DNA from: Cyanophora paradoxa CCMP329
Lineage: Eukaryota; Plantae; Glaucophyta
NCBI GenBank assembly: GCA_004431415.1
Contig: QPMI01000208.1
Location: 62,001 to 126,000 of the forward strand
Direction: 5' to 3'
DNA: 64,000 bases
In this document: piece after piece, positions 37,770-59,233 of the stretch
How the letters are laid out: every line of letters begins with the position of its first letter
Position numbering within the stretch: the first letter of the stretch is position 1
Position numbers and translations under genes: made by a program
The notes under the pieces: generated by a model
Databases searched by the model: none
Told to the model about the DNA's origin: nothing
The model's input: only the letters and a program-made list of their open reading frames with translations

Positions 37770-38720
37770 ATCGCAGTCGACGCCGCAGCCACTGCAGCTG
37801 GCGACCCGGCTTACAAGCTGCCCCCGGCCCTGGCCTGCGCCAGGACGGACTGCTATATTGCGCGCTCCTGCGCCAACTGTTCAACGGTTCCCGGCCTTCG
37901 CACTGGCTGACGATGCGAACTGGGGCTGGTCAGAGCGACAACGCCACTGGGGCCAGCGGCCGGGACCCCTTCCCCGGCCCCCGCATAATCGCGCCGCCGC
38001 CCGCCGCGCCTCCGCCCGCGGCCGGGGCGCCGCGCCGCGCGCGCGCTCCGCTAGCGCTCTGCCGGCGAGCAGCGCGCGCCGCCCTAGGCCTCGAGCTCCC
38101 GTGTCCCCGCGCCTGGCCCCGCGCGGTACCCGGTCCTAGCTGGACATGTCGCCCTCCGCGATGTCGACGTCGACTCGCCGTACGCGTGTACATGCATTGC
38201 TTGGCTAACCGGGCGCGGCACGCGGGAGCGCGCAGCGGCCGGCTGCGCGACGCGAGGCCGGCGCCGTGCACGTGACGGGCGGGGCGATCGGGCAGCGGCC
38301 GCGGTCGGCGCGGCTCGCCAGGCGGCGCGGTCGGCGGTCGGCCGGGTGGAGGCGCCGCGGCGCGGCAGCTGCAGGCGGCGGCGCGGCTCGGCCTGCGGGA
38401 CGGGGGCGCGGCGCGCCGCGTCGCGGCGGCGCGGCTCGGCGCGCGCGCGGGCGGGGCGGGTCGGGGGCGTGGCGCGCGGCGGGGCGCAGCGGCTCGGCGG
38501 GCGGGCGGGGGCGCGGTGGGCAGCGGCGCAGCTCTCCGGGCACCGGCGCGCGGGGGGGGAGGCGCGGGCGGCGGCGCGCTGCGCGCAGGCCCAGGCCTAC
38601 GCCTAGCGAGCGAAGATCTAGATAGCCGCTGAGCATGCGCATTACTTAGTTGTTGTATTCTGTCAACGCCGGCGCCCCTACTTTAGACCCCACCTTGCAC
38701 CTCCTGAGACGAGCGGGGGC

Positions 38721-38976
38721 TGTCGGATGGGAAGAAGCCCACCCGGTACGCCCTGCGCGGTCTAGCGCAGGCGGTGGTGATAGCAGGAAGCACAAGTGGT
38801 CTATTCACAAGTGTACCCGTACAGCGACGGCGTACCCCTCAGATGGGGCCGCGCCCGGCGCTAAGTCACAACACAGAGAGCACTACAAGCTAGAAGCTTA
38901 CTAGCGCTAGACTAAGGCTAGAGGCTAACCATAGACTACCAGCTAGCCTAGTCCGAGGGCATCGCGGCATGCGACA
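38721..38976 (-). repeat. 3' LTR
   Basis: Identical to 58978-59233. Confidence 0.97.
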
Positions 38977-38988
38977 ACTCCTCACTCT
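38977..38988 (-). other. Polypurine tract
   Basis: AGAGTGAGGAGT on the minus strand abutting the 3' LTR. Confidence 0.75.
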
Positions 38989-39608
38989 GCATACGATGCG
39001 TCCGCGCATCGGACCGCGCCAAGCTCGTCAGCACGCGCAGCGGGTCTCCCAAATCGCGGCGGCGACGGAGCAGGAGCTCCACTCGAGGAAGATAGGTCAT
39101 CACCAGCAACCAGCAGCACCAGGTCGACGAAGTCGGGGTAGATAATAAGGGTAGAGGTAGCAGGATCCGATACCGGAAATGCATGTACCTAGGCAACCCC
39201 TGGCAAAGCTTGAAAAGTGCTGAAAAGCATAGACTCGAAACCCGTGGGCTGGCCCAAAACTCGCTCCGTACGGCGAGCACCGCAGGAGAGGGGCACGGAT
39301 GGGAAGTTTCACCGCCTCGGAAGAAAACGCGAGGAGGTATCCGGGCCACCCATCAGGCCCAACGAAAGAGCGGGGCACGATAGAGTGAGCCGCCGACTAC
39401 ACGCCTTTCTGGGGCCGTGCACCAACGAAGCCCCACTCTACCACTCCTCTGAGCTCTAGGGCCCGCGCTCCAGAAAAGGGAACGAAAGTCTTCATGGAGC
39501 CAGCACGCCACCGACCCACGCTTGGCCCGACAAGACAGCGCAAGTGTGATCGGCCGACGTCTCCAAGAGAGGACAAGGCTGAGGCAAAGCTGGCAAAGAA
39601 ATCTGCCC

Positions 39609-42314
39609 TCAAGCATCTTCCACCAAGACCACATCTTCGGAGTCGCCCGAGGCCATCTGCTCCAGATCCTCGGCGCCGACGTCAGGGACAGAGTTTGAGT
39701 CTTGATTTGGTTGAGAAGAACTTGCTGATCCATCCACGGGGTCCTCGGAGTTCACTTTACGCGGCCGGCCCAAGCGGGGACGAGCTTGCGACTCAGAGAG
39801 GCGCGGCCGGAAAGGAAGCATGCAGTCGATGTGGGCGACCGTCTCGCGGAGAGGTCGAACCCGCGTGTCGCTCATGGTCGAATAGGGTTTAGCCGATCCC
39901 TTCACGGTGTAGGTGTAACCGCCCGGGTTAACGCCAGTAACCGTGTAAGGTCCGACCCATGAATTGTACAACCCCTTGTCATGGTCGCCCATCCAGCACA
40001 ACACCTTGTCGCCGACCTGGAAGCGACGGCGATGCGGAGGATCACCCGTGCGAGCTACCATGCGATTCCGATAGAACCGCCGGTATTCGCGCGAGGCGGC
40101 ATCGACGCTGGCCGCTGCCCTTGTCATGGCGAGGAGGTAGTCGGCTGGGTGCGTATGGTCGGGATTCGCGAAGCGGACACCTGCACCGAAGCGCACTTCA
40201 CAAGGAAGGTGCACGTCAACGCCACGGTGTAAGACCATCGGTGAGAAACCGGTGGCGGAGTGCACGGTGGTCCGCAAAGCGAGGACGATGTCCGCGTTGT
40301 ACAAGGGCCAATCAGAAAGAGGCCGCTTGTGCTCGCGGCACATCGCGTAGGCGAGAGTTTTGTAAACACCGCCGAGGCGCTCGGCGCCGCCGTTGGTGGC
40401 GTGGTGATAAGCGGCAGCGTGCACAAAGCGCGTGCCCTTTTCTTTGAAGAACTCGTTCCACAGGCCCCCAACCAACTGAGAGCCGCGGTCCGTGAGAATG
40501 CGCGCAGGCACGCCCTCATGCATATAGAAATCGATCGCGGTGGCGAGCAAGGCCTCGCCCGAGACGCGGGCCAGTGGATAGATGTAGCAGAACTTGGTAT
40601 ACGCGTCGACGTACGCGATGATGTACCGCAATCCGTCTTCGTGCATATCCAAGTGGAAGATATCCACCTGCCACAGATCGCCTCGGCCCGAAGGCTGTAT
40701 CACTTGAATAGCGGTACGGCGGGGCTTTACTGCCTTCGCGAACTGGCAGTGGGGGCACGATCGCACGAAGCGAGCGATCGAGGCGTACATGCCTGGCCAC
40801 CAGAATCGTTGGGAAATCCGACGCGCGATCACGGGGGCGCCACGGTGGGCCCAGCCCTCATGATAGGCGTACAGAACTCGATCGATCCAGGCGTCCGGCA
40901 GCACTGGTAAGAATCGGCCGGCAGGCACCAGCGGGTTACGTTCGATGACGCCATCTTCGGCGAGGCTGAAGTCGGCGGCCAATCGCACGAAACGCTCCTG
41001 GGCCCGCAAGCAATGTGCGCAGGAAGGGGGGCAAGGGTCCGCCCCTCGCTTGTCGCCACGCGAGCACCGAGTCGGGTTCTCACCCTTCTCAAAGTAACCC
41101 AAGAGCTTCTTGCAGAAAGAGTCTTCCCTTTGGGCGGCAAGCAGGCGCTCCCGTCTCTCGAGCGGGAACATGCGACGCAGCGAGCCGGGGAGGGCGCCAT
41201 CGATCGCCGGCGAAGGCCCACAGGCCCAGGCGTCAAGGACCGTGTCCACGAAGACCGGCTTGCACGGCGGGCGTACTTCGCGACCTCTGGGGTCAAGCTC
41301 GATCCACCGTCGCGGAGCGAGAGTCTCTGCGGCGACTACCTCGGGGCCCGGAGCCTGAGGAGCTGGCGACGGCTCGCCCCCACGGCGGCGCAGCGGCTTC
41401 GGAGGATCGGGCATGGTAGGCTGCACTCGCATCTGGTTCCGCGCCGTCTCAGGGGAGAGCGAGCGGCGGCGAGAGGGCCCCGGGGGCGGCTCGCCCTCGA
41501 CGGACTCGGGCTCCCAATCCAAGTGGATTGGCACCGGCGCCTCGCTTTGATCAGCTGGGGCACGCCAGTGGCGGGTATTGTGCTCGTTTCGCGGCTGACG
41601 TCTCATGGCTGGACCGCGGGGAAGGACACCGGAGGGGTGCGCGGGACGAGGCTCGGCGAAGCCCCGGCGGTCCCATCGGCGCGGGCCTGTCTCGGCGCGC
41701 GGCGGCAGTTTGCCCAGGAGGGTCAACGGGAATCCGTCGGCGTCGCACTCAGCGTCCAGTTCAGCCTCAGGCGAGACTTCCGACTCTGAATCAGCCGCCG
41801 CGGCCTCGGCGTGTGCACTCTTGAGCAATGCCGGCGGCGCGCCGTCCTCATTGTCGGTGGGGGCGTCCGGCATGTCCACGTCGGAATCCGAGCCGGCCCC
41901 AGGGCCAGTAGTGGGGCGACGGTCTCGCTTCGCAGGCGGCGGGGACGGCGACTCGGGTGCACGAGGCGCGAAGCGCTCGGGTACGGCCCTCGCCCTCTTC
42001 CTTGACTCGTCGTCGCTGGCGGTAGCGGACGCCTTGGCCTCGGCATAGCCCGCAGAGGCGGCGAGCTTAGCAAGCTCGCGGGGCACTCGGCGGCGGCCGG
42101 CCGGCGCGGGTGCAGGCTCGGGGGGCCGCGACTCCTCCTCTGCATTAGAGGAGCGGCCCACTGGTTTCGCAGGTACGGCTGCTGGGCTCGACTCGTCGAC
42201 GGGCGGGCGGCCACGCCGGCGGCCCGAACGATCGAGGCCCGCAGGCACCGCGCCCTGGAAGCCGGCGGAGTCGGCGAGCTTCCGCAGGGCTCGCTCTGTC
42301 GGGCCCAACTGCAC
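39609..42314 (-). CDS. pol: pol: long disordered linker plus integrase (HHCC, DDE, GPY/F)
   Basis: YHEGWAHRG..CPHC, WQVDIF, ILTDRGSQ, NGGAER, WVGPYTV. No chromodomain visible. Confidence 0.93.
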   Translation of the reverse strand: MQLGPTERALRKLADSAGFQGAVPAGLDRSGRRRGRPPVDESSPAAVPAKPVGRSSNAEEESRPPEPAPAPAGRRRVPRELAKLAASAGYAEAKASATASDDESRKRARAVPERFAPRAPESPSPPPAKRDRRPTTGPGAGSDSDVDMPDAPTDNEDGAPPALLKSAHAEAAAADSESEVSPEAELDAECDADGFPLTLLGKLPPRAETGPRRWDRRGFAEPRPAHPSGVLPRGPAMRRQPRNEHNTRHWRAPADQSEAPVPIHLDWEPESVEGEPPPGPSRRRSLSPETARNQMRVQPTMPDPPKPLRRRGGEPSPAPQAPGPEVVAAETLAPRRWIELDPRGREVRPPCKPVFVDTVLDAWACGPSPAIDGALPGSLRRMFPLERRERLLAAQREDSFCKKLLGYFEKGENPTRCSRGDKRGADPCPPSCAHCLRAQERFVRLAADFSLAEDGVIERNPLVPAGRFLPVLPDAWIDRVLYAYHEGWAHRGAPVIARRISQRFWWPGMYASIARFVRSCPHCQFAKAVKPRRTAIQVIQPSGRGDLWQVDIFHLDMHEDGLRYIIAYVDAYTKFCYIYPLARVSGEALLATAIDFYMHEGVPARILTDRGSQLVGGLWNEFFKEKGTRFVHAAAYHHATNGGAERLGGVYKTLAYAMCREHKRPLSDWPLYNADIVLALRTTVHSATGFSPMVLHRGVDVHLPCEVRFGAGVRFANPDHTHPADYLLAMTRAAASVDAASREYRRFYRNRMVARTGDPPHRRRFQVGDKVLCWMGDHDKGLYNSWVGPYTVTGVNPGGYTYTVKGSAKPYSTMSDTRVRPLRETVAHIDCMLPFRPRLSESQARPRLGRPRKVNSEDPVDGSASSSQPNQDSNSVPDVGAEDLEQMASGDSEDVVLVEDA

Positions 42315-43552
42315 GCGGAAGATGCCGAGGGGAACGTCGGGGTCCTCGGGCTCGGCGCCCTCGGCATGCTGGGAACGCCAAAGCCCTCGGCTCCCTTGTA
42401 GGCCGCGGGCGTCGAGGAAGAGCCATCGGCGCCGCCGGGCTGCCAGACGGGGTGGTCCTTAGGGAGGCGCGAACACGCGTCAGGGCCGCCGTTCTGTTTG
42501 CCCGGGCGATAGACAATATCAAAATCGTAAGCCTGCAGGAGCAGGGACCAGCGGCCTAGCCGACCCGTCGTCGGATCGAGGCTTTTCAACCACTGGAGGG
42601 CGTGGTGGTCGGTTCGGACCAGGAACTGGGGCCCGCCTAGCAGATAGTGGCGCCAATACTTGATGGCCCACACGACGGCGAGACACTCGAGTTCCGTAGC
42701 CGAGTAGTTCATCTCAGCCGGCAGCAAAGTGCGGCTGATAAAGGCAAGGGGCGCTCGACGCCGTCCTTGTCCGTCTGGCTCAGAATCGCGCCGATTGCGT
42801 ATGTACTGGCGTCCGTCTGGAGTATGAAGGGCTTCGAGAAATCCGGGAACCGCAATATGATATCGCGACCCAGCAGTTCTTTCAGCTCCTTAAAGGCACG
42901 GTCGGCGGCACCGCCCTCAGGCCAACTCCAGACGGCGTCCTTCAATAGAAGGCGCTGCATAGCGTAAACCACTTTGGAGAAGTTCTCAACAAAGCGGCGG
43001 TAGTAACCGGCGAGGCCCAGGAACGAGCGGAGCTCGTCCGCGTTCTTAGGCGTCTGCCAGTCCGAGATCACCTTGGTCTTCGCGGGGTCCTGCCGGATCC
43101 CCTCGGCGGAGATGCGGTGGCCTAGAAGGTCGATTTCTGGCACGCAGAAGCGGCACTTCGACGGCTTCAGGCGCAAGTTCGCCTTGGAGATCGCTTCGAA
43201 AAGCGCCTTCAAGTCCAAGAGGTGCTGATCGATCGACGGCGAGAACACCGTGATGTCATCGATGTAGGCCACGACACAGGTCGTCAGGAGAGGGCCCAAG
43301 ATCGCGGTGATCGCACGAGAGAAGGCCGCAGGGCCATTGGTCACCCCGAACGGGGTCACGCGCCACTGGAAGTGACCCCAGGGGACGACGAATGCAGTGT
43401 ACGCGCGCGAGCCGGGGTGGAGAGGGAGCTGCCAGAAGCCGGCGGTAGCATCCGCCGTCGAGAAGACCATCGAGCCGCGCAGGCGCTCGAGCTGGTCGTC
43501 GATGCGGGGCAGCGGGAATACGTCGCGCTCCGTGATCTGATTAAGCCTTCTC
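42315..43552 (-). CDS. pol: pol: reverse transcriptase (N-terminally deleted) plus RNase H, frameshifted
   Basis: FPLPRIDD, GFWQ, PFGVTNGPAAF, YIDD, FLGLAGYYRRFV, LQTDAS, NYSATELECLAVVWA, TDHHAL. Confidence 0.93.
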
Positions 43553-45130
43553 GTCTCCGAGCCTTGCGGACTGTCATCACGTCATGTAACGAGCGGACGG
43601 CGCGTAGGATGTCGGCTTCCCCAGCCTCTGTGAGCTTGGGGAAGGTCCCGCGCAGCGTTGCGCCTGCGGGCACGGCCACGGCTTCGACCGCGTCGGCAAA
43701 TTCGGTTGCCGGCGGGCCCGAGATCGGTACTGTTGTCGGAGATGCGCTTCTCTGGGACGCGCCGTCGAGGTCAGAGGCGTCGTCGAAACTAATAAGGCTC
43801 ATAGCGTCCGTCTCTTGCCACGGCCGGTCATAGACATCGAACGGCATTGCGCCGAATGCGACAACGAGATCATCGGCGTCGTAGAGCGGCGCGCGGGTCG
43901 GGCCCGGAGGGCCAAGCACAGGTAGAGCAGCGGTGGCTGCCCGTGCTTCTTCAGCTGCAGTTACTACGGCGCGCAGCGAGGTGATGATCTTTTCGACATC
44001 TTTGGCAGGCTCGTAAGCCGCCCCAAGCATGCGCGCTTTTCTATTGAAGTGGCGAAGTCCCGTGCGGCGTTTAGCCGGCACAATTCGCATGCGGCGAATT
44101 AAAAGATCAGTCAGATCTTTGGGACTGGTGGGAATTTGCTCAGGCTCATACAAGAAATCACCAGGGGGCAAAGCCACTGCCTCGGCGACTGCTACTACTG
44201 AACCTAAGGGGAGGGTAACTGGCTGGCGTCTGGGGTTACACAGCCGCACGTGGAACATTTTGTTCCCCGGGTTGTTGTGCAGCTGGAAGGGGCAGAGTAC
44301 GCCCAAGGCTTGAGGCGACTCCGGCGAGGGCTCGACGTAGAGGTGCGGCAACTCACGCGTTGCCGGGCCCTGCCCATTGAGCGTACATGGGACGAGGGCC
44401 TCTCCGACGGGGAGCTTTACAGGTCCGAGCACGCGGACCAGGATCCCAAGCTGGTCCGGAGCCGAAAAGGGACGACAACCTCACGGTAGTGGCTGTCGCG
44501 GGCGCGGAGGCACCAGCCCGACAGCGTAGTATCGATCTGGCCGTGGATGGCCTGGATGGCATCCAGGCCGAGAAGAATGTCGGGCTCGGGGCCCATGACG
44601 CCGCGCGGGACGACGAAAACACGACGGCAGAAACGGAGAGTCCCGAGGATGAAAACTACGTCGGCGCGACGGCAACGGATTTTGTCGCGGTCCATGAAGC
44701 CACGAACTACGGTGTGGCCCTCGACGTAATTGACTTCGTCGGGCGGCAGGCGATCGAGGACTTCCTGCGGGACGACGGTGCCTTGGGCGCCCGTGTCGAT
44801 GACGATGCGGACAGGCCGCTCGGCGCCCGACCGTCCGTTGGGGAGTCGCATCGCGATGCAGCCTGGGATTTGCAGTGTTTTTGGCCGGAAGAACTCGAGC
44901 GTTTTGTCGCGAGGCCAGCCGGTGCGGGCCTTGCGGACGTAGTACTCGGGTTCCGGCGGGGCGGGCGGTCCCGCAAGGTCGGGGCTGCCCGCTTCAGAGC
45001 TCGGCGAGGACGGGCGCGAGTTGCGAGCGGCTGCGCGGCGCGCGATCCGCTGCTGCTCCGCCTGCTCCTCCGCGGGGGACGGGCGCGAGCGTTTACGCCG
45101 GCTCGGGCCGTGACGGTTTGCATAAATCAA
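43553..45130 (-). CDS. pol: pol: retropepsin aspartic protease plus dUTPase-like linker, frameshifted at ~44470
   Basis: IVIDTGAQ and ILLGLD. The following segment VRLCNPRRQPVTLPLGSVVA resembles degenerate dUTPase-like folds. Confidence 0.82.
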
Positions 45131-45444
45131 CTCGTCGGCGGGCGGGTCGTAGCCCGCGCGCGTGCCCAGCGGAGTGTCCTCTGCCGGCCGAGGGACGTTT
45201 CAAACTGAACGGAGTTTGCGTCACGCCCCGCCCATTGTTAACTTCTTCCGCCAATGAAATTAGCCCAGCGCAAACTTGAGCTCGAACTTGGCCTCGTACA
45301 CAGTGGCGTACACACGCGGCCACAACGGTCACAGTAACGGTCAGCAGGCCGGCTTGCTAGTCAGCTTCCCTCGGCTAGGCCGGACTAGCTAGCTTCCCGC
45401 CATCGCGCACGCCCGAGCGCGAGCATTCCTGCACGCCGCCGTGC

Positions 45445-47072
45445 ATGAAGCAGTCAAAGCGAAAGGAACCCAGCCTCTGGGATGACGGCTTCGACGAGGC
45501 CCGACGTCGGCACCGCTGGCACGGCAAGCGACCCGACAGCAGCAGCTCGTGGGCCGGCAAGGGCAACATGAAGCGTGTCAACAAGATCACTCAGCAGGCG
45601 CGCAAGGCGAAGGAGCCCAAGCTCCCTGACCTCGACATCCTCAAGGGCGAGCACCCCGCGGCAACGGTCCGCTGCCTGGACACCAGCGGCCGCGCCTACC
45701 ACGTTCGCCTTGGCGACTTCGTCATCTGTTCAGTTAGCTCAGACACCCAGCTGTGTCCAGAACTCAGCGTCGTTCGCCCGAAGCCCTTCCATTTCCCGCG
45801 CCCAGGTGAAACGATTTTGGCGCGAGTCGAGGGCGAGTTCCCAACACAGACGAAGGCGAAGCGCGGCGACTTCAACTACTCCGTCAACGGCGTCATCCTT
45901 CGGCGCTTCGTGCGCCCGGAGGACTCCGATGTGAAGGACTGCGGGCTCGGCAGCGTGATCATCAAGGCAGACGGGGAGCAGGCAGCCGTGGCCATCGCAA
46001 ACCACCTCATCTACTACTCGAACGTGACGGTCCGCCCGCCGCGCCCGCGCCCCGTTCCAGCGTCCGATGCCCGTGCGCGCAGGTTCACGCACCCGCGAAG
46101 GTGGTGGCCGCGGACGAGTACAAAGCCCTCAACCACGCCGATCCCCACATCTACGTCTGTAAGCAAATCATGACGTTCCCGGGCGACGGCTCCTTCCAGT
46201 TCGACGTCGCCCTCGCCTTCAACGCGAGGCTCAAGCGAGTGGCGAAGAAGAAGATGGCGTGCTTCCTCCGGCCGCTGTCGAGGCCGGAGGAGCGCGTGGA
46301 GGCGATTGGCTACCTTCAGGACGCCGCCGCGAACGCCCTCAAGCGCCGGAAGACCGGGACGCAGCTTGTCAACGTCAAGATCCCGGTGGCCGGGCCGGCA
46401 ATGTTGGTCTGCGGCTCTTATGACTCGTTCGAAGTTCTTTTTCCTATCCTCTAACGGTGCGCATCGCAGGAGAACATCGTGGCGCAGGTCGCGCACGTCG
46501 CCACGCCCATCGACCCGAAGACGGGCCAGCCGATCCCGGTTGACAAGCTGCCGGCGGCGAATCGCTTCGTTATCGAGCTTCCGGACCGCGAGACCGCTGC
46601 TGGTGGAAGCCGCTTCCTTTTTCCCGCTCGCTGTTCTTTTTCCGACCTCTTTGCAGCTGTTCTCGGTCCCTCCGGCGTGGCGCAAGCGTCCAAGCGCGTC
46701 TGCAAGCGGGACGCGGACGGGAAGGCGATCCGGAAGCACAGCGAGCACAGCGATCCGGACGCGGACGGGAAGGCGATCCGGAAGGCGAGACGGGGACGGG
46801 AACGGCGCGCGCACACGCTGCTGAAGGTACTCGATCGCTTCAAGGAGCTTGGACGCCATGCGAACCGCATCGGAAACCCGCTTGCAGCCGGTGAGCCTCC
46901 GATAGAGTGCGGCGTCCTCCTCCTCGATGCGAAAGCGGTGCCGCCCGGGCTTGTCCCAGGGGGTGAATCGATCTTCCTCCTCGCCCGTCATCTCGACATC
47001 GCACTTGCGCCGCTTGCACTGCTGCTTGGTGGACGTGGCGGGCTTCTTCGGGGCTGGCTTCTTCGCGGCTGA
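45445..47072 (+). CDS. Antisense intron-containing BAH-domain protein inside the retrotransposon; 3' end uncertain
   Basis: YHVRLGDFVIC..ILARVE..VILRRFVRPEDS..LIYYSN[intron 46030-46082]VHAPAKVVAADEY..IYVC follows the BAH pattern. A second GT-AG intron at 46407-46469 has a CTAAC branch site and keeps the frame. Confidence 0.68.
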
Positions 47073-47780
47073 GCTGGCAGGCGACGGCGCGACAGAGGGA
47101 TCGTCCATATACCGCTCCATGGCAACGAAGGGATCCTCATATTGCTCGCTCGGTGCCGCCGCGGGCGAAGGCTGGGAGGTCGCCGCCGCTGCCCGCTTGC
47201 GACTCACGCGCTTAGGCATGTCCACGGGGGTCGCTGGCGAGGCCGCTGCCGCCGGCGGCTGCGTGCGTGGAGGCGTGGCCGGCTGATCATGCGAAGGCTG
47301 CGATTGCGAGGGCGCAGCTACTACCCGCTTGCGACGCGGGCGATCAGGCGTGTACACGGGGGTCGCTGATGAGGCAGCTGCGACAGGCGGCGTACACGGC
47401 TGTACAGGCGTACCCCCCCCCAAAGGCGTCCCTGGCGTCTCACAGCAGCCGCTGCCGGGGCTCTGCTCGAGCTCTGAGCGTACTGGCGAGACTTGTGGGG
47501 AGTCGCTCCCGCCCGCCGGCTCCGCCGCGGGAGGCGCCAGCGCGACCGCGGCCGTCGCATGCGCAGCTGGCGCTGCATGCGCAGGCTGAACGACTTGCTC
47601 GCTCAAAGCTGCGTCGCCAAAGTCGTCTGGATTCACGTCCTCGCCGAGGTCGTCCTGGCTGCCGCAGGTGCTGCCGCCAATCTGGCCGTGCCGCGGCCTG
47701 CCATCGCTGGCGCCGCCCAGCCACGCTCTAATGGAACCGAACGCTGAGCCGACCTTGGCAGACAGCACAGAGAGCGGCAT
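46451..47780 (-). CDS. Accessory protein, disordered with HLH-like C-terminal segment; 3' end uncertain
   Basis: ATG at 47780, Pro/Ala/Ser-rich region, NLS-like KRRK, then RIEEEDAALYRRLTGCKRV..ASKLLEAIEYLQQ. Possible intron from ~46814. Confidence 0.5.
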
Positions 47781-48089
47781 CTCGATCGCCGAACGCTAAG
47801 CTATAAGCGCTTTTGCTTTTCCCGCGCAAGTCCGTGGCTGGCCGCAATCTAGCTGCAGCTGGCCGTGGCTTGGAAGGGGGGGGAGATGGCTTGGGGGGGA
47901 TATAGAATTTGGTCTAGCCAGCTCGAACTCGAACTCAGCCGGCTGATAGCCGCCGTGACACGGCCGTGTTCAAAATTCAAATTCCATCCATTGTTAAAGC
48001 TCGCGAACTAGCGGGATGTCCAAAAGGTCGCGCCGTTTTCGGCCCGTCGAGGTCCGTCCGGGGCCGTCTGCGACATGCGAAACAGCTCC

Positions 48090-51000: not shown

Positions 51001-54000
51001 GTGAACACGAAGCCGTGGGGGAAATTCTCGGGGTGGCTCCAGAGCTCATTGGCGGCTCGAGCGGCCTCGGTGTCGGGGAGCACAGTCGGCTTCCAGGTGC
51101 CGGCGACCTTGGTCACTGGCCAGTGATCCTCCTCGCCAGCCATAGGCGGGGAGGCAAGCTCGAGGCGCTGGTACCCGAGTCCCTGCGGCGTCTGAGCGAG
51201 GTAGTCGCGCAGGGCGCTCGCTACGACGCCCTCGTGCGTCGAGCGGTCCGTCGCCCGCTTCAGGTGGTACTCCAGAACGTCACAGAGCGTCTCGCTCTGT
51301 ACCGCGTTGAGCGGCGCCCGGCCGTCCTTCCGGCGCGGCAGCAGCGGGATCCCGGAGTGCTGGTGGCCCTGGAGAACGGCCAGGAGGATGCGCGAGCAGA
51401 TGGCCAGGCGGCCCTCGTAGTCGGGTACTACTTTACCCTGCTCGTACTTCCAAGCAAGCGTCGGGCGCCCATCGGCGTACGTCGGGCGCGCATCGCGGGT
51501 TCCCTTTTCCTTTTCGGGTTTGGACGGCGGCGGTGTGAGGAAGGCCCTGTGCAGAAATCGCACGAGGCCGTCGGGCACGACGCAGCGGTATGAGTTCAGA
51601 ATGGCGTTTGTGTCCTCGTCGAGCGAGGCCACATTCGCGATGTATCGCTCAACAACCTCGTCGCTGTCCTCGATGACCATCGGCGTGACAGAGAAGTCAT
51701 CGGACCAAGGCTGGCTGCCGAGCGCCTTGCCTGGCGCGTAAGCCTGGAAGCACCGGTGCTGCCACGCGACGGTGAAGCCGGCGAGGGTGCACGCGAGGTC
51801 TTCCTCCACCGGGATCGGGGCCCATGCGAGGGCGGACGAGGTGGCCCCCGCAGACAGCTCGTAGCCAAAGGCGTTGACGAGGGGAGGATGGGCCTTGCTG
51901 CGCTTCGGCGCGCGAGCTAGCTTCCCCATCGTGCCACCCAGCCAGAGCGCTTGGTTGGTTGCCTGGTGCCGAGCATTTGTCTTTGCGTCGGCATCGTGCA
52001 GCTTCCCAAGCACTGCAGTGCCCGCGACGATGCGCGGCGCGTAGGTGCGGACTACTTCGAAGCGCTCACTGTCGCTGCTCTGGGCAGTGCGCTTGTCGCA
52101 GAGCGGGCGGTGGAGATCGAGGATAACGGTCTCGCGCGCGTAACGCGTGCCGAACGGCGACGCGGCAGACTCGACTCGCGTGTCCGCGAGGTTGTTGTTG
52201 AGGACCGCCGTATACGGGGAGGGGTTCATGTCGTCCTGGATATACGGCGGGCTTTCATCGCCGGGGTCATCCACGAAGAAAACGGTGTACAACACGCGCG
52301 CCGTCTGGGCGAGCGCGGAGCTCATGGCGGCGTGCGCCGTTCCCTCATGCGAAATGTCCCACGGGCCTAGGTACGAGGGCACCATGGACTGCGCGGAGCG
52401 CGTGCCGACCGCCAGGTACTGCGCAACGTCCGGGTCGACGCCGCACATGACGTGCGCGAACGCCAGACCCTGGATATCGAACAGCCGGCTCTCCCGCAGG
52501 GGCAGCATCGGCGGGCCTACGGCCGCGAAAAAGTTCGTGATGCCGCGGGCAGCGCTCCCGACTCGCTTCAGGATAGTGGACGCAAACTCGCCCAGGTGCG
52601 TATCGAGGCCATGGATCGCGTCCCCGTAGCTCTCGTCCGTCTCAGTCTCCGAGCGCCACTGCAGCGGGTAGCTGATCGCAGGCAGGGCCGCCCAGTCGAG
52701 GACCGAGCTATCGAAGCAGCCGAGGGGGCGGAAAAACGAGCTCGTCTCAGACAGATACTGCTCGAGCAACGTGTGGTCGTTTAGATACGTCTTTTCCGTG
52801 AGAGAGAACACCGGGCGAGGCTTCCACTTCGGGTGAGGTGCGAAAGCGGCGCCGGCGTGGAGCCGAGCGACCTCGCCCTCCGCGCCCTCGTCGGGGCGGA
52901 GGTCCTCGCCCTCGGGAAGATCGACGAGGAAGGGGTGCAAGGGCGGGTCGGGCTCGTCGGTGTCAGCACCAGCGAGGCGGGCCTCGTCCACCGCGTACGT
53001 CTTCGGGCGACGCAGCATTTTCAAGATGGAGTCGCGCATCGCGGCCCACTCCGCCGTCGCAGCGGTCTCGAAGATGCTGGCCCGCGACGCAAGGCGCAGG
53101 TACTTACGAGCCCACCTCAGCCCCTTCGGCAGCTCCAGGGCTGCTCGGGCCGCCGACGGGGCTTCCGCGGCCGGGGCCTCGTCGAGGAGCAGCGCGTGGG
53201 CCTGCAGAAGGTAGCGCGCGACGCTCGACGGGATGACGACCGCATTCGGGTTGAAGCGATTCTCGTGCACCCAAGCCGGCGTGCGCGGCTGCGGGATGCG
53301 CCAGCGAGCCGTGAGATACCACTCGACATCGTCCTGCGCCCAGTCATGGAGGCTGGTCGGCAGGCCATCGGTCTGAGGAGTGATTTCAGAAACCAGCCCC
53401 AGGCCGAGCATGAGCAGCTCAAGAGCCGCAGCGTTCTCGCGGGCGATCCGAATGGAGCTCGGCGCGCGGCGGGCCGGGAGGCCGGCCAGCGGTACGACGG
53501 CGGGGAGCGGGTTGTCCGCGCGCTCGTACGGCTGCGAGCCGCACTCCTCGATGATGAAATCTTTCAAGTGGGGGACGCGGAGCGTCTCGAGCGTCCCCTT
53601 GACAGCGGACGTTTCAATACCCCAGCGTGCTGCCAGAATTTTGCGCTGGGCAGGCGGCCAATTCTCAAGGCTCTTGCCGCGGTTGTGCGGCGAGACCCTG
53701 GGCACTACGAGGGCTCCGCCAATGACCCCAAGCGCTTCGTACAGGGCGTACTGGGCGGGGTCGTCGGCGTCGGGAGTCCCGGCAGGCTCAGGCTGGGACG
53801 CGGGCTGCGTGGGCTCGCTGGGGCCCTCGCCGCCACCTCCCCCCTCATCGCGCTTCTCCGACATGGGCACATCACCCTCCTTGTCCTTCTGGGGCTCCTG
53901 GCCCTGGGCGCCCTTGCGGCCCCGCCCCTGGCCCCGCCGGCCGCCTCCGCGGCCCTGACCCTTCGCGCCCCCAGCCGCTGCCTGCCGCGGCTTCCCGCCA

Positions 54001-54959
54001 GCTAGTGGGCCAGGCTCGTGCGCAGGGTTGAGGGCGGGCGTCGGCGTCCGCGGAGGCGAGAGGCGGCCGCCGGGCAGGATCGCCGGCTCGGGCGCGGCTG
54101 TCTGCGGCACGAGAGCGGCCGCAGCCTGCAGCGTGAGCCCGATGGCCTTCACGGTGGCCTGGCCGTCGAGAGCGCGGGCGTGCGCCTCGCGATCGAGCTT
54201 CGAGGCGACCGGGGTCGTCGTCGGGCAGCTCGGATCCAAGCGCCACTTCTCTGCGAACGCGATGAGCTGGTCGACCTCCTCGTCGCTCAGACCGCCGCTC
54301 TTCCGCTTGAGGCGGCGGTACAGAAGGATGAGGTGTGCGCGCGAGTGGGGCGGAGTGCCCTCAATGTACTTGATGAGGCGGGCGCTGCCGGCACTCCCCG
54401 TCACAGTCTTAATGTGGACGAGGCTCTTCAGGGTTTCCAAGGGCTCGGTGGGCCCCAGGGGGCTCAAGATCGAGACCTCCTCCGGGATGATAGTGGGCTG
54501 ACGCCCAGCATCCTTGTCGGCATGCAAGGTCAGCTGCGTGCCCCGCGTCGCCGGCCGCACGAGCCCCAGGTACCAGCCCGTCGGGACTGGCGCCTTGGAG
54601 TCGCCAGGGGCCGGCGGGCGGTGACCCAGCAGCGCGTAGAGCCAGGCGGTGCACAGCGGAAGGTCGCGGAGCGCGAGGATGCGCTCGGCGGCGAGGCCCT
54701 CGCCGACCGACATCCGCTCGACGACGCAGGCGTCGCTGAGCCGGCTGTAGTCCGGGGCGCGCCCCTTGCGGTACGCCTCATGGCGCTCGTGGGCGGCCCT
54801 GGCCAGCCAGCCCTCAGTGTCCTTCACCGAGTGGAGCACCTTCGCTGACGGAACTGGCAGCTCGAGCGAGAGCGCCGCGGTCGTGAGCAGGTGCACCGCA
54901 GTCGTGAAGTCAAAGTCCGAGGGGCAGGCACGGCCTCGCTCGCGAGGAGAGCGGCACAC
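48090..54959 (-). CDS. 2289 aa uncharacterised ORF with RGG- and RS-rich regions; probable C-terminal part of the giant Gag ORF
   Basis: Uninterrupted 6.9 kb frame with protein-like composition. No domain recognised. Confidence 0.85.
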   Translation of the reverse strand: MCRSPRERGRACPSDFDFTTAVHLLTTAALSLELPVPSAKVLHSVKDTEGWLARAAHERHEAYRKGRAPDYSRLSDACVVERMSVGEGLAAERILALRDLPLCTAWLYALLGHRPPAPGDSKAPVPTGWYLGLVRPATRGTQLTLHADKDAGRQPTIIPEEVSILSPLGPTEPLETLKSLVHIKTVTGSAGSARLIKYIEGTPPHSRAHLILLYRRLKRKSGGLSDEEVDQLIAFAEKWRLDPSCPTTTPVASKLDREAHARALDGQATVKAIGLTLQAAAALVPQTAAPEPAILPGGRLSPPRTPTPALNPAHEPGPLAGGKPRQAAAGGAKGQGRGGGRRGQGRGRKGAQGQEPQKDKEGDVPMSEKRDEGGGGGEGPSEPTQPASQPEPAGTPDADDPAQYALYEALGVIGGALVVPRVSPHNRGKSLENWPPAQRKILAARWGIETSAVKGTLETLRVPHLKDFIIEECGSQPYERADNPLPAVVPLAGLPARRAPSSIRIARENAAALELLMLGLGLVSEITPQTDGLPTSLHDWAQDDVEWYLTARWRIPQPRTPAWVHENRFNPNAVVIPSSVARYLLQAHALLLDEAPAAEAPSAARAALELPKGLRWARKYLRLASRASIFETAATAEWAAMRDSILKMLRRPKTYAVDEARLAGADTDEPDPPLHPFLVDLPEGEDLRPDEGAEGEVARLHAGAAFAPHPKWKPRPVFSLTEKTYLNDHTLLEQYLSETSSFFRPLGCFDSSVLDWAALPAISYPLQWRSETETDESYGDAIHGLDTHLGEFASTILKRVGSAARGITNFFAAVGPPMLPLRESRLFDIQGLAFAHVMCGVDPDVAQYLAVGTRSAQSMVPSYLGPWDISHEGTAHAAMSSALAQTARVLYTVFFVDDPGDESPPYIQDDMNPSPYTAVLNNNLADTRVESAASPFGTRYARETVILDLHRPLCDKRTAQSSDSERFEVVRTYAPRIVAGTAVLGKLHDADAKTNARHQATNQALWLGGTMGKLARAPKRSKAHPPLVNAFGYELSAGATSSALAWAPIPVEEDLACTLAGFTVAWQHRCFQAYAPGKALGSQPWSDDFSVTPMVIEDSDEVVERYIANVASLDEDTNAILNSYRCVVPDGLVRFLHRAFLTPPPSKPEKEKGTRDARPTYADGRPTLAWKYEQGKVVPDYEGRLAICSRILLAVLQGHQHSGIPLLPRRKDGRAPLNAVQSETLCDVLEYHLKRATDRSTHEGVVASALRDYLAQTPQGLGYQRLELASPPMAGEEDHWPVTKVAGTWKPTVLPDTEAARAANELWSHPENFPHGFVFTGTAFGVRENFEGILRTLYAEYVHVIGHVGDSKIDWEALKSPEWENDALSPALMWDAVTTQKNAAPVMKLRGKAQSPDEAHLVRTPYQPIYDADVRTSWAGTHFVPPPALVDDAKTGVTPLENEGPAPAAAQAVAPAAASSSSAPQQAGQTPPHAAPHGGHGGRGGRGGGDSRGRGGWRGGGGWRGGGWRGRGGWQGPGGYQGGGPNQGFQGQPWQPGPQPWPPGPPGQQWQSGQWQSGQPPPTTPPVPQHPPRSPPPREQTPMAPPPPRRTPDRPRVTEGQRSPRSSTSQTTAPPATRERDRESSRAPSKRRSRSPARSSRAQSKYSRRSRSRDRDDRRSRHRSPERRRSSSRSRHDRRSPSRSRRSSSRDRSSRSPRRSSRDRRSRTRSRSRSRSRDRRRDSLRSPRKGKGRPPTPPKGAEEAGYDEHVRDASRVYQNPTAREAYTALWEKTYAEATHQLDAKKRAQYTTDTLRASLLRQLDQATARSSYGGHGAGTYAMAPAWGWGSAPATPAAQSSSEPLAATERAELERLRAAEKGKQPFLSGPGGQSEQGATGPHAAAAEGSASSSQAGQPTSQTAEKKKARPSASISSFDPAANIATLGLLAFAQECAACRDPGLRDTGLQNLRNWVYTVDRRVTTAHDVYRRMKGGNAAPQDNWKEAHRRCCQMLELLSRALKQNISMEITLPEGTVTSLLSTLPTGPRNELESLRRTLDVTREFRTQLERERQRDLREIHAREAEATGSRVVRMVRKAAETAEPIRAARVHGDLPAHLHVSPSGAALGATAVEERSAAPCVSVREPVLLVERAAPAVPPPRQDPAPSPPPASSPAQEQPAPAAQREQAPAWARRLLNQLGPRSTVTVFNWLANPALMLTVKPSELSPALRAAHQSIMNRYGLTLHKQGYKAPPRLAREWFSGSTPTAAFAPKTALEAEAIIYPEGISSDEEAMVPVGHALSAKNRPTAALP

Positions 54960-56060
54960 TTATGCAGGTCGATGCGACCGGTGTGGCCCCCGAAGCTTCC
55001 CGCAGTTTTCCAGCGAGCCCAGTGCTCGAGGAGGACGAGCGCGAGCCCGTAGGCATCCGTGTGCTCGTCGACCATGAGCGGGGCCGCGAAGTCGAAGTAC
55101 CGCTGGAGAATTTTCTCGGCGGCCTTAGACGACCCCGGGGCACCGTAGTCGAGGCGGTGCAGGTAATAACCGGCGACGCAGGCCGCAGCTGCCAGCCGCA
55201 GGCGGGTCTGGTCGGAAACCAACTGGCCGCGACCCAGGCGCGTCGATCCCATCAGCTGCATCTCGTGCGGCGCGAGTGCGAGGGCGATCGGGGACTGCGA
55301 GCCGACGCTCTCGTGGCCCCGGTAACCCTCGAGCCAGCCCGCGATCGCTATCTCGCCCGGCCGAAGCTTCTGGAGGTCCGGTTCCACCTCCGGCTTGCCG
55401 AAGGCGGTCAGGCCCTTCGTGGGCCACGGCCTCCCCTTGGCAACGCGCTGGGCGTGAAGGCCGACCTGCCGTACCAGGTGCATCGTGCTGAGGTAGCGCG
55501 TCGGCCAGGCGTGCGCCAGCAGGTCGCGCGAGGCGCTGCTGTGCCCCAGCATGTGCAAGAAAGCCGTCGGCAGGGTCGGGGAATCGGTATACACACTCTC
55601 ATCCGCAAACGGCTGCGTGAGCGCCGAGAGCAGGAAGGAGAAAGCCTGGCGAGTGCGGCCAGGGCAGCGGAACGCGGTAGCGTACCACTGCACCTCCGGC
55701 TGCTCGACCAGGCCCTCGAGGCAGTACGTCACACAGTGGCTGAGGCGAGGGTTCGGGTACACGAAACCCTCGCGCCCTAGTTCCACGGGAGCGGCACCCT
55801 TCAGCTTGTGCCCCTGAACATCCCAGAGGATGGCCGGGCCCAGCTCGGCCTCGCGGCCGGGCTCCTCCGTGAGATTTAGGGCGCCGAAGTGTGCTACAGT
55901 GAACCCAGCGCGCGCAAGGTAAGCGCGGTTGGTGCGGATGCACTCCTTAGAGGCGGCCTCGCGATCCTCCTCGGCCGCCGAAGCGCCGTCGTCCGTGACC
56001 GAGAGGCTCGCAACGGTCTCAGCGCCCGACGAGTACTCCAGGCAAGGGCCGACCCGGCGG
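54824..56060 (-). CDS. Middle part of the giant Gag ORF, bounded by 1 bp frameshifts
   Basis: The frame of ORF 54824-55786 stays open upstream to at least ~56060. Both junctions fall at C-runs. Confidence 0.65.
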
Positions 56061-58425
56061 CGGGGTCGACGTCGCCCTTGACGCAGGTGGCCGCCACGGC
56101 GGACTCCAGGCTGCCAATTGCCAGTGCGTCAGCATCCCCGCCCGAGCTCGCCGGCTGCAGAGCAGCGACATCAGAACCCTTCGCTTCTGCGTCAGCGCCC
56201 TCAACCTCCGTTGGGTCCGGGGCGGCCGCAGACTCGAGGGCAAAGGTGCCCAGGTCGGCGGCGTTCATGATGTCGGCAAATGAGCTCAGGCCGGCGGAGA
56301 GCCCAGGGCCGATGCCGGCCGCGATCGGCTCGGTCGCGGTCTTTTCCGTCTCAGCGAGGCCCGACTCCGGGCGGGCCCGCATGTCGATCACGGTTTCCTC
56401 CTCCGGGCAAAGGTCCGGCCGCGCAGCCAAGATAATCTGCACGAGGCCGATCGCGAACGCCGTTGCGGCTGCGGCGCAGGTGCTCAGGCTCTCATCCTTG
56501 TGCAGGGCTGCGGCATGCTCCGTAGTGACGGCGCTGAAGCGCTCGAAGGCGCGCGCAAGCTCGAGACCGGTGCTCGCGCTGGTGCGGTCGATTTTGACGC
56601 GGAATACGCGGCGCTCTTTGCCGAGCTCCGCGGGCGCAGGAGCCGCAGTCGGGCCGGAGCCGGGGCTCGCGGCCGGGGTGGACGGGCTGCCCAGAAGGCT
56701 CGGGCCTCCGCGGACGGCCTCCGAGAGGATGGCGCGCGCGATCGCGAAGGTCGCGGCCTCGCTCGCGGGGCTCGTCGCCGGCGCAGAGGCGAGGGCTTCC
56801 TTGTGCTCAGCGAACGCGCGGCGGACGGCGATCCCAACCTCACTCGCGATCTTGGAGTCGATCGCGGGGCAGTTAGCCTGGCGGTGCCCCGGCTTTCCGC
56901 ACCCGTAGCAGACAGGGGGCCCGTTGCCGGACGGCGGGGCGGGGCTGAAGTTCCCACCCTGAGGGCGGCGCTTGGCCTCGCCTCCGAACCCGCCGGCGCG
57001 GCGCTTGTTGGGGTTGATCACCGCCCAATCGGGCAGCGGCGTCGGGCTCACGTCGCACTCGAACTTCCAGTGGCGCTTGCCGCAGTGGCACGGGTTGCGC
57101 GGCTGAGCCGGCAGACCGCGCTCGCGCAGGAATTCGGTGATCTTCTGGCGGTATACCGGGTCGTCGGGCCGCGGCGGCGGCGCGGAGGAGGACGGGTAGA
57201 TCGCGCGGATCACCACGTCAACTTCCTCATCGTCGCCCGCGAATGCGTACCGGCAGAACATCACGAGTTCCTCCGTCTGCGCGTCGTCCGCGACGCCGTC
57301 ATCGTACCCGCCGTCGTACGCCTCATGCGTGTGCGCTCGCATCACGCGCGCGTCCTTCGATGCGCGGCTACCGGGCGGGACGACGGGGACGGCCGGCGGC
57401 GCAGCGTGCATGGCCGCGCGCTGCAGGGACTGCATAGCGCTCGGGGCCGGGGCCGGCGCCGCGCTCGGCAGCGCGCTGCGTTTGACGACGTACGCTGAGC
57501 CCGGCACGTTCGAGATATCCGTGTCCCATGCGCCGAGCTCGCGGCAGCGCTTGCGTACGTAGTTGACGAGGGCAACCTCGTCTTTCAGCAAGCCCTCGCG
57601 CACGCGCTGTGCAAGTTCGGCTTGCACTACTGTCAAGACCTCGAGGTTCTTGAGCATGCGGCGCCGGTCTTTCTCCGACAGATCCTTCACGTCATCGAAT
57701 TCGCGGTACGCGCCGCGATTCCGGTGTGCGATCATGTCGCCGAGCTGGCGGACCAGCGCCGAGAGCGGGTTCTCGAGGAGCTGGCGCGCGTCCGGGTGCA
57801 TGCACAAGCGGCAGGTGCGGCGGACGCACGCCTCGGGATTCTCGCCTAGATAGGGCAGGCGCAGAACTTCCTTCAGGTCGTCCGGGTTGCGCTCGCCCGA
57901 GTCGGACTCCAGGCGGGCGCGGATCGCAGCGAAGGTGGTCTCGCGCTTAGACGCCACGATGGCCTCTTCGATTTCTGCGATCTGCTCGCCGAGCCCTTCG
58001 AGCAGCATGAGCTCGTGCTCATTAGCAGCGCCCAGCCGTTCCTTTTCGGCCTTTTCGCTCTTCAGCTTCGCCAGCTCGCTCTTGCGCGCGCGCTGGCCGG
58101 CGTGGAAGAGCTCGATCTCGCTCCGCACGCTGTGCGCGGGGTCGAGAGTCTGTACGAGCGCGAGGCCAGTGTTCTGCTGCTGGCTATCGCCTGCATCTTC
58201 AGCCAGATTCAGGATGTTCCGGCTAAGTGCGGCGGCAGCCTCGAAGGCCGCGAGGTGATCCTCGACGGTCTGGCGGTCGGCGCCTGGCTGCAGCGGCGGA
58301 ATCCGACGCAGCATCTCTAGCGCATTCGTCGGAATGCCGCTTAGAGTGCTCGGCTCTGCCGTGAAAGGAGCCAAGTTCGCCATCCGGATGTGGTACTCCG
58401 CGGAAGCTCCGGTGCCGGAGGACAT
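55894..58425 (-). CDS. gag: Gag with zinc knuckle(s)
   Basis: CYGCGKPGHRQANC (CX2CX4HX4C) plus variant CHCGKRHWKFEC, with a coiled-coil N-terminus. First ORF after the 5' LTR. Confidence 0.85.
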   Translation of the reverse strand: MSSGTGASAEYHIRMANLAPFTAEPSTLSGIPTNALEMLRRIPPLQPGADRQTVEDHLAAFEAAAALSRNILNLAEDAGDSQQQNTGLALVQTLDPAHSVRSEIELFHAGQRARKSELAKLKSEKAEKERLGAANEHELMLLEGLGEQIAEIEEAIVASKRETTFAAIRARLESDSGERNPDDLKEVLRLPYLGENPEACVRRTCRLCMHPDARQLLENPLSALVRQLGDMIAHRNRGAYREFDDVKDLSEKDRRRMLKNLEVLTVVQAELAQRVREGLLKDEVALVNYVRKRCRELGAWDTDISNVPGSAYVVKRSALPSAAPAPAPSAMQSLQRAAMHAAPPAVPVVPPGSRASKDARVMRAHTHEAYDGGYDDGVADDAQTEELVMFCRYAFAGDDEEVDVVIRAIYPSSSAPPPRPDDPVYRQKITEFLRERGLPAQPRNPCHCGKRHWKFECDVSPTPLPDWAVINPNKRRAGGFGGEAKRRPQGGNFSPAPPSGNGPPVCYGCGKPGHRQANCPAIDSKIASEVGIAVRRAFAEHKEALASAPATSPASEAATFAIARAILSEAVRGGPSLLGSPSTPAASPGSGPTAAPAPAELGKERRVFRVKIDRTSASTGLELARAFERFSAVTTEHAAALHKDESLSTCAAAATAFAIGLVQIILAARPDLCPEEETVIDMRARPESGLAETEKTATEPIAAGIGPGLSAGLSSFADIMNAADLGTFALESAAAPDPTEVEGADAEAKGSDVAALQPASSGGDADALAIGSLESAVAATCVKGDVDPAAGSALAWSTRRALRPLRASRSRTTALRRPRRIARPPLRSASAPTALTLRALGSL

Positions 58426-58977
58426 TCTTTTCACGAAAAGCTCGCGGCGTAAAGCCAAGCTTATCGATCAGAATGTCCGCGATCCGGCTCCTCTGAGGTC
58501 CGCGGTCGCGCGACGAGGCTTCTCGAAGCCAAGTCGCCGATGTCCTCTGATCAAGCACGCCCTTTCAAGAAGACAGGCTCACTACGCGGTAGTAGAGCAA
58601 CTGCTTCGGGCGGCTAGCGATGCAACGGCGATCCGAGCAGTCTGCCTCGGTCCCGGTTCGCTTTTCGATTCTCTCCGTCGCTCGGTGCCGCGGGCAGCCG
58701 AGGTGAGCAAGCTCACGTCGCACGAAACCGGAGCGATCTGCCCCCGGCTCGTGTTTGCGCTCTACTTGCGAGAGCAGCACGCCCCAGTTCGTCAACCTGC
58801 TCGCTCAGCCTTTGCGGGCACGGGCGGGGAGCGTCCGCACGCTCCTCGACCTCTTTCGAGGTTCTCCCGTGCGCCGGCTGAGCTGCGGGTGCTGGATTGG
58901 GCTGGTTGCTGAGGATGGTCGCTGAAGATCGCTGGTTCGTGCTCCGTAGGCACGTGGCGCCTGTCGGCAGTGGCGCC

Positions 58978-59233
58978 TGTCGGATGGGAAGAAGCCCACC
59001 CGGTACGCCCTGCGCGGTCTAGCGCAGGCGGTGGTGATAGCAGGAAGCACAAGTGGTCTATTCACAAGTGTACCCGTACAGCGACGGCGTACCCCTCAGA
59101 TGGGGCCGCGCCCGGCGCTAAGTCACAACACAGAGAGCACTACAAGCTAGAAGCTTACTAGCGCTAGACTAAGGCTAGAGGCTAACCATAGACTACCAGC
59201 TAGCCTAGTCCGAGGGCATCGCGGCATGCGACA
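58978..59233 (-). repeat. 5' LTR
   Basis: Identical to 38721-38976. Confidence 0.97.

Follow-up and report, generated by a model that had tools for sequence, protein, structure and literature searches.

Yeast Ty3 (Metaviridae) is a compact element whose frameshift falls between Gag and protease (PR). In the Alpharetrovirus-type layout (gag-pro, -1, pol) the protease is encoded in the Gag frame and one -1 slip leads into reverse transcriptase (RT). Plant Ogre/Tat elements are gypsy elements of large size that also carry additional coding sequence; long LTRs, non-coding stretches and further ORFs lying outside the polyprotein account for their bulk, and they have a second RNase H (PMC6317226, PMC12786077). 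Giant in-frame Gag extensions have already been described for the planarian Burro elements. As reported (PMC6431247), Burro/GYPSM1 has Gag with a CCHC knuckle at its N-terminus, thousands of residues in frame before the protease, and PR, RT, RNase H (RH) and integrase (IN) within the Gag polyprotein; BIR, ankyrin, MATH and BCL2-like domains and env homology occur in it, coding sequence totals ~5,000 aa, and the internal region reaches up to 25 kb.

Here we describe a gypsy-type retrotransposon of Cyanophora, spanning 38721..59233 on the minus strand of the window (the whole 64,000-nt stretch analyzed) and 17.6 kb long once a nested insertion is subtracted (Table 1). We hold with good confidence that this is a Ty3/gypsy element whose ORF1 encodes Gag, a long insert and PR in ~3,700 codons and likely passes by -1 frameshifting into RT-RH-IN, with an unrelated 2.9-kb element in the studied copy. 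The closest known architecture is that of Burro, minus its domains. The N-terminal Gag and CCHC, the thousands of residues in frame before the protease and the ~5,000-aa coding total are alike in the two, but the Cyanophora element is smaller, has a stop common to its copies after PR and a frame break before RT, and yielded none of the domains or the env homology reported in PMC6431247. The likeness, judged by description, is likely convergent. The domain order is that of Ty3, yet Gag to PR spans 3,700 aa and the frame breaks after PR. The gag-pro/-1/pol layout (given the candidate frameshift) is shared with the Alpharetrovirus type, from which the element differs in having no env and a Ty3-like RT. 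Extra coding sequence is shared with Ogre/Tat, whereas no second RNase H was detected.

Table 1. Coordinates of features of the LTR element and of the element nested in it.
Feature	Position	Strand	Basis or remark
5' LTR	58978..59233	-	256 nt, TGT...ACA; 100% identical to 3' LTR
3' LTR	38721..38976	-	256 nt, TGT...ACA; direct repeat of 5' LTR
TSD GGGGC, left copy	38716..38720	+	sequence match
TSD GGGGC, right copy	59234..59238	+	sequence match
Candidate PBS, GGCGCC..., without usual first T	58965..58977	-	presumed resemblance to tRNA-type PBSs
Purine-rich tract, imperfect PPT, adjoining 3' LTR	38977..38990	-	sequence inspection
Gag part of ORF1, CCHC knuckle at its end (56913-56866)	56866..58425	-	zf-CCHC E 0.0017; start codon from P0038/P0037/P0047
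In-frame insert of ORF1, ~3,050 aa up to PR active site, no known family	48095..56865	-	gene models, frame analysis, alignment
ORF1 end: linker and aspartic protease (DTG), stop 44419-44417	44417..45195	-	Asp_protease_2 E 2.9e-5
Candidate -1 slippery site C_CCU_UUU, in phase with PR	44465..44471	-	heptamer scan
8-bp hairpin, 6 nt downstream of slippery site	44434..44458	-	z -1.3
~300 codons open in -1 frame ahead of RT; RT N-terminus missing at its end	43556..44464	-	frame and model comparison
RT (YIDD) and RNase H, 1-nt gap near 42750	42527..43555	-	profile matches, motifs
Integrase: HHCC, DDE core, GPY motif	39612..40898	-	profile match, motifs
Nested multicopy mobile element	45196..48094		ends CGT...ACG, TSD GGA (or GGGA), no long TIR
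Spliced nested gene (earlier 'BAH' gene), truncated here	45445..46745	+	contigs of presumed RNA runs; no family match
Exon 1 of second nested gene (earlier 'HLH-like' gene)	46814..47780	-	contigs of presumed RNA runs leave window at 46814; no family match

Boundaries and domains of the element

An earlier note on this DNA had recognized identical LTRs with an intact TSD, a PPT and the order PR-RT-RH-IN. All three hold: the LTRs and GGGGC repeats match exactly, the purine-rich tract lies ahead of the 3' LTR, and profile searches recover the series PR, RT, RH, IN on the minus strand (the order Gag-PR-RT-RH-IN was also checked in the protein model P0042). LTRs with TG...CA ends and a TSD within 4-6 nt agree with Ty3/gypsy elements, and the best match of RT among solved structures is Ty3 (4OL8, E 2.8e-48), against 2.4e-30 for a caulimovirus and with retroviruses weaker than Ty3. 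The element belongs to the Ty3/gypsy LTR retrotransposons. Neither of two further assignments is indicated, as in scans covering the main ORFs Pfam matched no chromodomain after the integrase (chromoviruses) and profile searches matched no second, archaeal-type RNase H (Tat/Ogre). A low-complexity linker of ~500 aa precedes the integrase. A pattern scan for the primer of the candidate PBS (120 stretches, 80 listed, 60 scanned) returned 0 tRNAs, and no self-priming match between candidate PBS and LTR was found.

The studied copy retains its catalytic motifs (DTG, YIDD, TDAS and those of the integrase) and has no RT N-terminus; it is likely non-autonomous today. Copies were compared through automatic gene models, which contain invented introns, and contigs from sequencing runs, not by LTR collection. 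No contig spans the whole element, and no second full-length copy turned up as DNA. P0041 and P0018 carry the same lesions as the studied copy, may be the same locus, and were left out as independent copies. Assembly misjoining as the source of the element was rejected on the TSD and on the colinear copies elsewhere, as represented by gene models and run contigs.

ORF1 and the element nested in it

Very long ORFs lie between Gag and PR. The earlier note saw in them a multi-gene architecture; in other copies, a single reading frame takes in the ORFs between 58425 and 48095 together with PR. Two 1-nt gaps, at 56052 and 54920, break ORF1 in the studied copy only, and an extra base is present in all three DNA runs at both positions (at all depth at 54920, at 82-84% of depth at 56052). 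P0026 and P0038 read through both gaps, P0040 and P0043 read through the empty site of the nested element, and the single 3,411-aa gene model P0047 is open across all three, from Gag to protease. Deleting 2,902 nt brings the 2,289-aa ORF into frame with PR, whose C-terminus is also that of P0040, P0043 and P0047. With the nested element removed, ORF1 runs from Gag through an insert of ~9.2 kb (3,056 codons) to the protease. The zf-CCHC match falls short of the Pfam cut-off in the studied copy but exceeds it in P0037, a sister protein; profile searches of the Gag region recognized this knuckle alone and no capsid family.

DNA contigs join 45191 directly to 48094 in both runs of one check and, at 95%, in all three of another (two runs are common to the checks). 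The intervening sequence is a separate mobile element, absent from other copies of the LTR element. Summed depth over 45.3-48.0 kb is ~10-20 times that over 48.6-52.6 kb, a hint rather than a copy number, and nested exon 1 matches 21 of 23 retrieved proteins, 15 of them at ≥98.9% over all 193 aa. The studied copy's own nested junction was not recovered from any sequencing run. The element is internally deleted near 46745-46801; its visible parts gave no profile match to a transposase (the middle being deleted here), and its ends share only CGT...ACG and the 3- or 4-nt TSD.

Two genes in this element had been read as HLH-like and BAH regulators, conserved as lineage cargo between gag and pol. 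Both do lie between the LTRs here and are spliced in contigs of presumed RNA runs, but other copies lack them, models of the plus-strand gene occur on 20 contigs, and RNA contigs continue into other flanks exactly at 45196 and 48094-48095, which makes conserved regulatory cargo barely credible. Nor was either domain recovered. The plus-strand gene is real as a spliced gene antisense to the LTR element, with GT..AG joints in two presumed RNA runs and introns of ~54, 63 and 54 nt near 46029, 46406 and 46602. Its BAH label did not survive: there was no Pfam match to E 0.1 or 1, and exon 1 had no usable PDB or Atlas match, in profile and sequence searches that leave room for a remote fold. The HLH label likewise found no Pfam match to E 0.1 or 1, in exon 1 and its ORF, the parts of the gene covered; the remainder of the 593-codon minus-strand ORF is antisense to the plus-strand gene. 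The nested element represents another mobile family, likewise undescribed, that is multicopy and transcribed and adds at least 20 models to the Cyanophora gene count. Contigs of the presumed RNA runs are nearly absent over ORF1 and pol and were not used as evidence.

The claim of ~11 kb of coding cargo splitting gag from pol thus stands for ~9.2 kb of coding sequence, conserved in three subfamilies, but as an in-frame Gag extension reaching PR rather than as separate genes. Absence of 45.3-56 kb from other copies, which the earlier note had named as the case against its proposal, applies to 45.2-48.1 kb, the empty site; 48.1-56 kb is kept.

The frame break after the protease

All three models on other contigs that run through the end of PR stop where the studied copy does. 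RT-RH-IN is likely made by programmed -1 ribosomal frameshifting, because this break is common to other copies and is the only one of five frame breaks with an in-phase slippery heptamer (1 in 4,842 codons elsewhere). Among the best-supported 40 of 48 differences, synonymous changes make up 14 of 16 in the PR frame ahead of the break and 6 of 7 in the -1 frame beyond it, and none listed falls between 44434 and 44482. Under this model, ribosomes would produce Gag-insert-PR in bulk, a minority would slip at C_CCU_UUU and add RT-RH-IN, and the protease would cut the precursor, yielding insert pieces one-to-one with capsid.

The same architecture might instead reach RT-RH-IN by splicing, as in Ogre, or from a second transcript. 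The host is intron-rich and Ogre has a functional intron, according to PMC6704402 and PMC12786077 respectively; all four pol models of the distant subfamily leave the frame right after PR via a predicted intron, and the hairpin near the slippery site is no more stable than shuffled sequence (z -1.3). We nevertheless consider such a route improbable, since the slippery site is in phase at the one common break and, among the best-supported 40 of 48 differences, -1-frame synonymous bias begins right after it, with four of the sites lying ahead of the PR stop, where an intron would call for no such bias. In the literature covered (Repbase, most subscription papers and supplements lay outside it), we found no post-protease slip in a gypsy element and no Cyanophora gypsy family. 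The supplement on repeats of PMC6704402 may bear on the novelty of the family.

Conservation and possible role of the insert

Three Cyanophora subfamilies carry the insert in colinear form, with identity along it of 63-82% to P0047 and 35-40% to P0037, and on three of the distant subfamily's contigs insert and pol models lie no more than two gene numbers apart. Among the 2,097 insert positions aligned in all three, 864 are invariant; 78% of tryptophans and 16% of serines are conserved. This W-high, S-low conservation is, in the alignments, the pattern of folded domains. Conserved positions are rich in W/P/F/L/R, with no excess of Cys or His. An RGG- and RS-rich stretch near 50600-49750 (-) is mostly missing from the P0047 model, through a predicted intron or true loss. 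In the 2,289-aa ORF, synonymous changes account for 14 of 28 differences, where 26-29% would be expected (p 0.005-0.016; best-supported 40 of 48 differences). Rough dN/dS is 0.35-0.41 for the insert versus 0.05-0.07 for pol (the same best-supported 40 of 48, in comparison sets that differ in divergence), which suggests, roughly, weaker selection on the insert.

No match to the insert was found in Pfam, PDB profiles, PHROGs, NCBIfam, Rfam or other species searched. Searches of metagenome and viral contigs with narrow peptide patterns, a weak negative, found no relatives, and an Atlas search with P0025 gave only scores under 0.8. Predicted folds were poor (pLDDT 29.8 for 50640-53756 and 34.5 for 54923-56050); fold searches with these models, with nothing at E 0.001, are uninformative. 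A resemblance of one insert motif to RNase H was also weighed and found no support in profile and fold searches.

The insert could derive from the capture of coding sequence from the host or a giant virus, doing little and being kept open since a stop would cut off the protease. Its weaker selection, its want of a known domain and the giant-virus insertions reported for this alga (PMC12344493) fit such an origin, but the residue-specific invariance over three subfamilies does not. All looked-up match clusters (10 of 10, then a further 2 of 2) are element-like Cyanophora models, and no host or viral donor appeared among 1.84 billion proteins; we regard capture as quite unlikely. That the insert serves infectivity or host manipulation, as an envelope-like or anti-silencing module of the kind proposed for Burro, is scarcely more probable. 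Burro does have in-frame env homology, placed between gag and pol (PMC6431247), and methylation of repeats is reported for this alga (PMC12344493), yet profile searches of the insert matched no env, BIR, ankyrin or MATH domain.

A structural or RNA-handling role, that is, scaffolding, protecting or exporting an unspliced genomic RNA of 17.6 kb in a host rich in introns, seems to us the likeliest, though at somewhat less than an even chance, because of the one-to-one stoichiometry that the mechanism would impose, the W/P/F/L/R conservation and the RGG/RS stretch. Cer1 CERV, from C. elegans, offers a precedent for such a role by analogy alone: this gypsy element is reported to have an additional protein that exports unspliced genomic RNA (PMC10309623). 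More tentatively, and with the odds against it as a whole, the element may represent an undescribed glaucophyte gypsy lineage that assembles its particles from a Gag-protease precursor of 3,700 residues, with several folded domains without relatives held one-to-one with capsid by a post-protease frameshift. It would then be a second independent route, besides Burro, to giant virus-like retroelements, and the insert would form a new layer of the particle or a machine that exports RNA, serving a genome of 17.6 kb.

If this layout occurs in a glaucophyte with content unrelated to Burro, giant in-frame Gag extension would be shown to evolve repeatedly. The ~3,000 conserved residues, which lack any known relative, offer a source of new folds, and with three subfamilies present in a single culturable alga the role of extra retrotransposon coding sequence becomes directly testable.

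Boundaries and setting of the LTR element

The element is bounded by 256-nt direct repeats that are identical throughout, start with TGT and end with ACA, and GGGGC stands on both sides of the pair as a 5-nt target-site duplication (TSD), bearing out the earlier note's description of identical LTRs with an intact TSD. With 0 differences in 256 nt, our arithmetic limits LTR divergence to about 1.2%, so the insertion is young, as had been proposed, though this bound gives no close date. The element shows the Ty3/gypsy features of paired LTRs with a TSD, the domain order PR-RT-RH-IN and a Ty3-type RT, for which Ty3 is the closest solved structure (E 2.8e-48). A tandem duplication of period 16 at 58950-58983 takes in the final LTR bases and the start of the candidate PBS, and perhaps reflects a primer template switch.

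Features of the LTR element in the window copy
Feature	Position	Strand
LTR element	38721-59233	minus
LTRs	38721-38976, 58978-59233	
ORF with CCHC knuckle	58467-55894	minus
Second ORF	56128-54824	minus
2,289-aa ORF	54959-48090	minus
Nested element	45196-48094	
PR, RT, RH, IN, in this order after the 2,289-aa ORF	four broken frames	minus

G+C is 68% in the window and drops to 48% past 62 kb. Just right of the element, summed contig depth of 19,000-49,000 over 60642-61308 marks a high-copy repeat. The host genes at 13295-18856 pair a phytochrome PHY region with a downstream nucleotide-cyclase domain and include a D-Ala-D-Ala ligase, which fits a glaucophyte. Apart from one unnamed 54-aa member, the homologues looked up bear Cyanophora paradoxa accessions, so this species or a very near relative is the host. 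At 35960-37769, two direct 768-nt copies (99.2%, TA-rich ends) have between them a short end fragment in inverted orientation and 237 nt identical to 32462-32698; the arrangement resembles that of a small non-autonomous transposon that transposed aberrantly. A 194-nt unit is duplicated in tandem at 33960-34331 (96% matched).

A nested element in the coding region

HLH-like and BAH genes, putative regulators, had been read as cargo of the LTR lineage. Contigs of the DNA runs X1 and X7, however, link 45191 directly to 48094, leaving out 2,902 nt, and at 95% likeness the joint is present in X1, X7 and a third run, X16. Both genes thus belong to a nested multicopy element, and neither label is borne out by our searches, which matched no BAH or HLH domain in the parts present. 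Summed contig depth, a hint only, was 1,228-4,509 at 45.3-48.0 kb versus 114-295 at 48.6-52.6 kb.

In two RNA-guessed runs from two studies, contigs of the nested element start at 45196 and stop at 48094-48095, with flanks that differ from the window, and RNA-guessed contigs skip its GT..AG introns. Exon 1 of the plus-strand gene retrieved nine clusters as a query; of the 23 members obtained, 21 match this exon and 15 do so at 98.9% or above, spread over 20 contigs. The nested element is transcribed and multicopy and carries two convergent spliced genes that belong to no known family. Its junctions read GGA/CGT...ACG/GGA, with a TSD of 3-4 nt and no long inverted repeats, and no transposition enzyme was seen in the parts present. 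Related models run on beyond 46745 with sequence absent from the window, indicating that this copy is internally deleted. One nested-element model, P0008, is fused to a ketosynthase-like model.

One giant frame and a break after the protease

Without the nested element the LTR element measures 17,611 nt, and the 2,289-aa ORF falls in frame with the protease (PR). At 54920 and 56052, both in short homopolymer runs, X1, X7 and X16 each carry one extra base. Among automatic gene models, P0026 and P0038 are continuous across both gaps, P0040 and P0043 are continuous across the empty nested-element site, and the 3,411-aa P0047 extends as one model all the way from Gag start to PR stop. Because other copies and models lack the nested element and read across both gaps, the predicted ORF1 is about 3,700 aa long, with 3,056 codons from knuckle to PR active site. 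The proposal that some 11 kb of coding cargo separates gag and pol is partly supported: a conserved coding insert of about 9.2 kb lies there, but it does not consist of separate genes, since Gag, insert and PR share one frame in other copies. These gaps, and the single-base ones near 42750 and 42371 that are filled in other contigs, may be long-read errors or decay; the published assembly of this species is PacBio RSII-based (PMC6704402).

The window RT matches the Ty3 chain only from residue 119, and the ORF upstream gave no match when searched. Sister models hold well over 100 residues at this N-terminal position that are absent from the window, so the window copy has lost its RT N-terminus. 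Given this deletion and the nested element, it is likely dead or dependent on other copies.

P0040, P0043 and P0047 stop at the same PR-end position as the window, so this break is not a one-copy lesion. Of five frame breaks, it alone has an in-phase X_XXY_YYZ heptamer, C_CCU_UUU at 44471-44465, which leads into the -1 frame; elsewhere, 4,842 other codons hold one such site. An 8-bp hairpin begins 6 nt after the heptamer, its stability no greater than that of shuffles (z -1.3). As far as 44483, the differences seen in relatives are mostly synonymous when read in the PR frame; from 44433 onward they are mostly so in the -1 frame, and none is listed between these two positions. Splicing is the rival way past the break; a programmed -1 slip into RT-RH-IN is the best reading and a probable one. 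Classical heptamer slips between gag and pol have been described in gypsy-type elements (PMC5009743).

Inheritance and predicted role of the insert

Searching 1,039 insert residues against 1.84 billion proteins returned 13 matches, all Cyanophora models by name, and library searches put no name on the insert. Its relatives form three colinear subfamilies: near-identical (95-100%), P0047 (63-82%), and P0037 with relatives on 10 contigs (35-40% identity over long stretches). Where all three align, 864 of 2,097 positions are invariant; by residue, the conserved share is 78% for W, 62% for P, 54% for F, 23% for C and 16% for S. Three contigs of the distant subfamily have insert and pol models no more than two gene numbers apart, and a fourth has them 31 apart. 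Of the listed differences from other copies, 28 fall in the 2,289-aa ORF and 14 of these are synonymous, where 26-29% would be expected (p 0.005-0.016); the synonymous count is 11 of 13 for RT and 14 of 16 for PR, and neither of the two differences in the Gag-frame ORF is synonymous. To judge from these comparisons, the insert is inherited and under constraint. The window and P0037 share the position of an RGG and RS-rich stretch, most of which is missing from the P0047 model. At the Gag start (58396-58425), ten residues are identical in all three subfamilies though their neighbours differ, possibly through RNA-level or targeting constraint.

The giant planarian Burro elements have a similar layout (PMC6431247), but their domain content and single-ORF organisation were not found here. 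The genome paper (PMC6704402) gives LTRs as 1.77% of the genome, in passages that describe no families, and our search of mainly open-access papers found no description of a Cyanophora gypsy family of this kind.

In the mechanism we propose, full-length RNA would be translated to Gag-insert-PR, a fraction of products would be extended into RT-RH-IN, and the protease would cut the precursor; reverse transcription and integration would follow the usual route, leaving a 5-nt TSD. The insert would be made in an amount equal to capsid, and this predicted stoichiometry favours a structural or RNA-handling role over a catalytic one.
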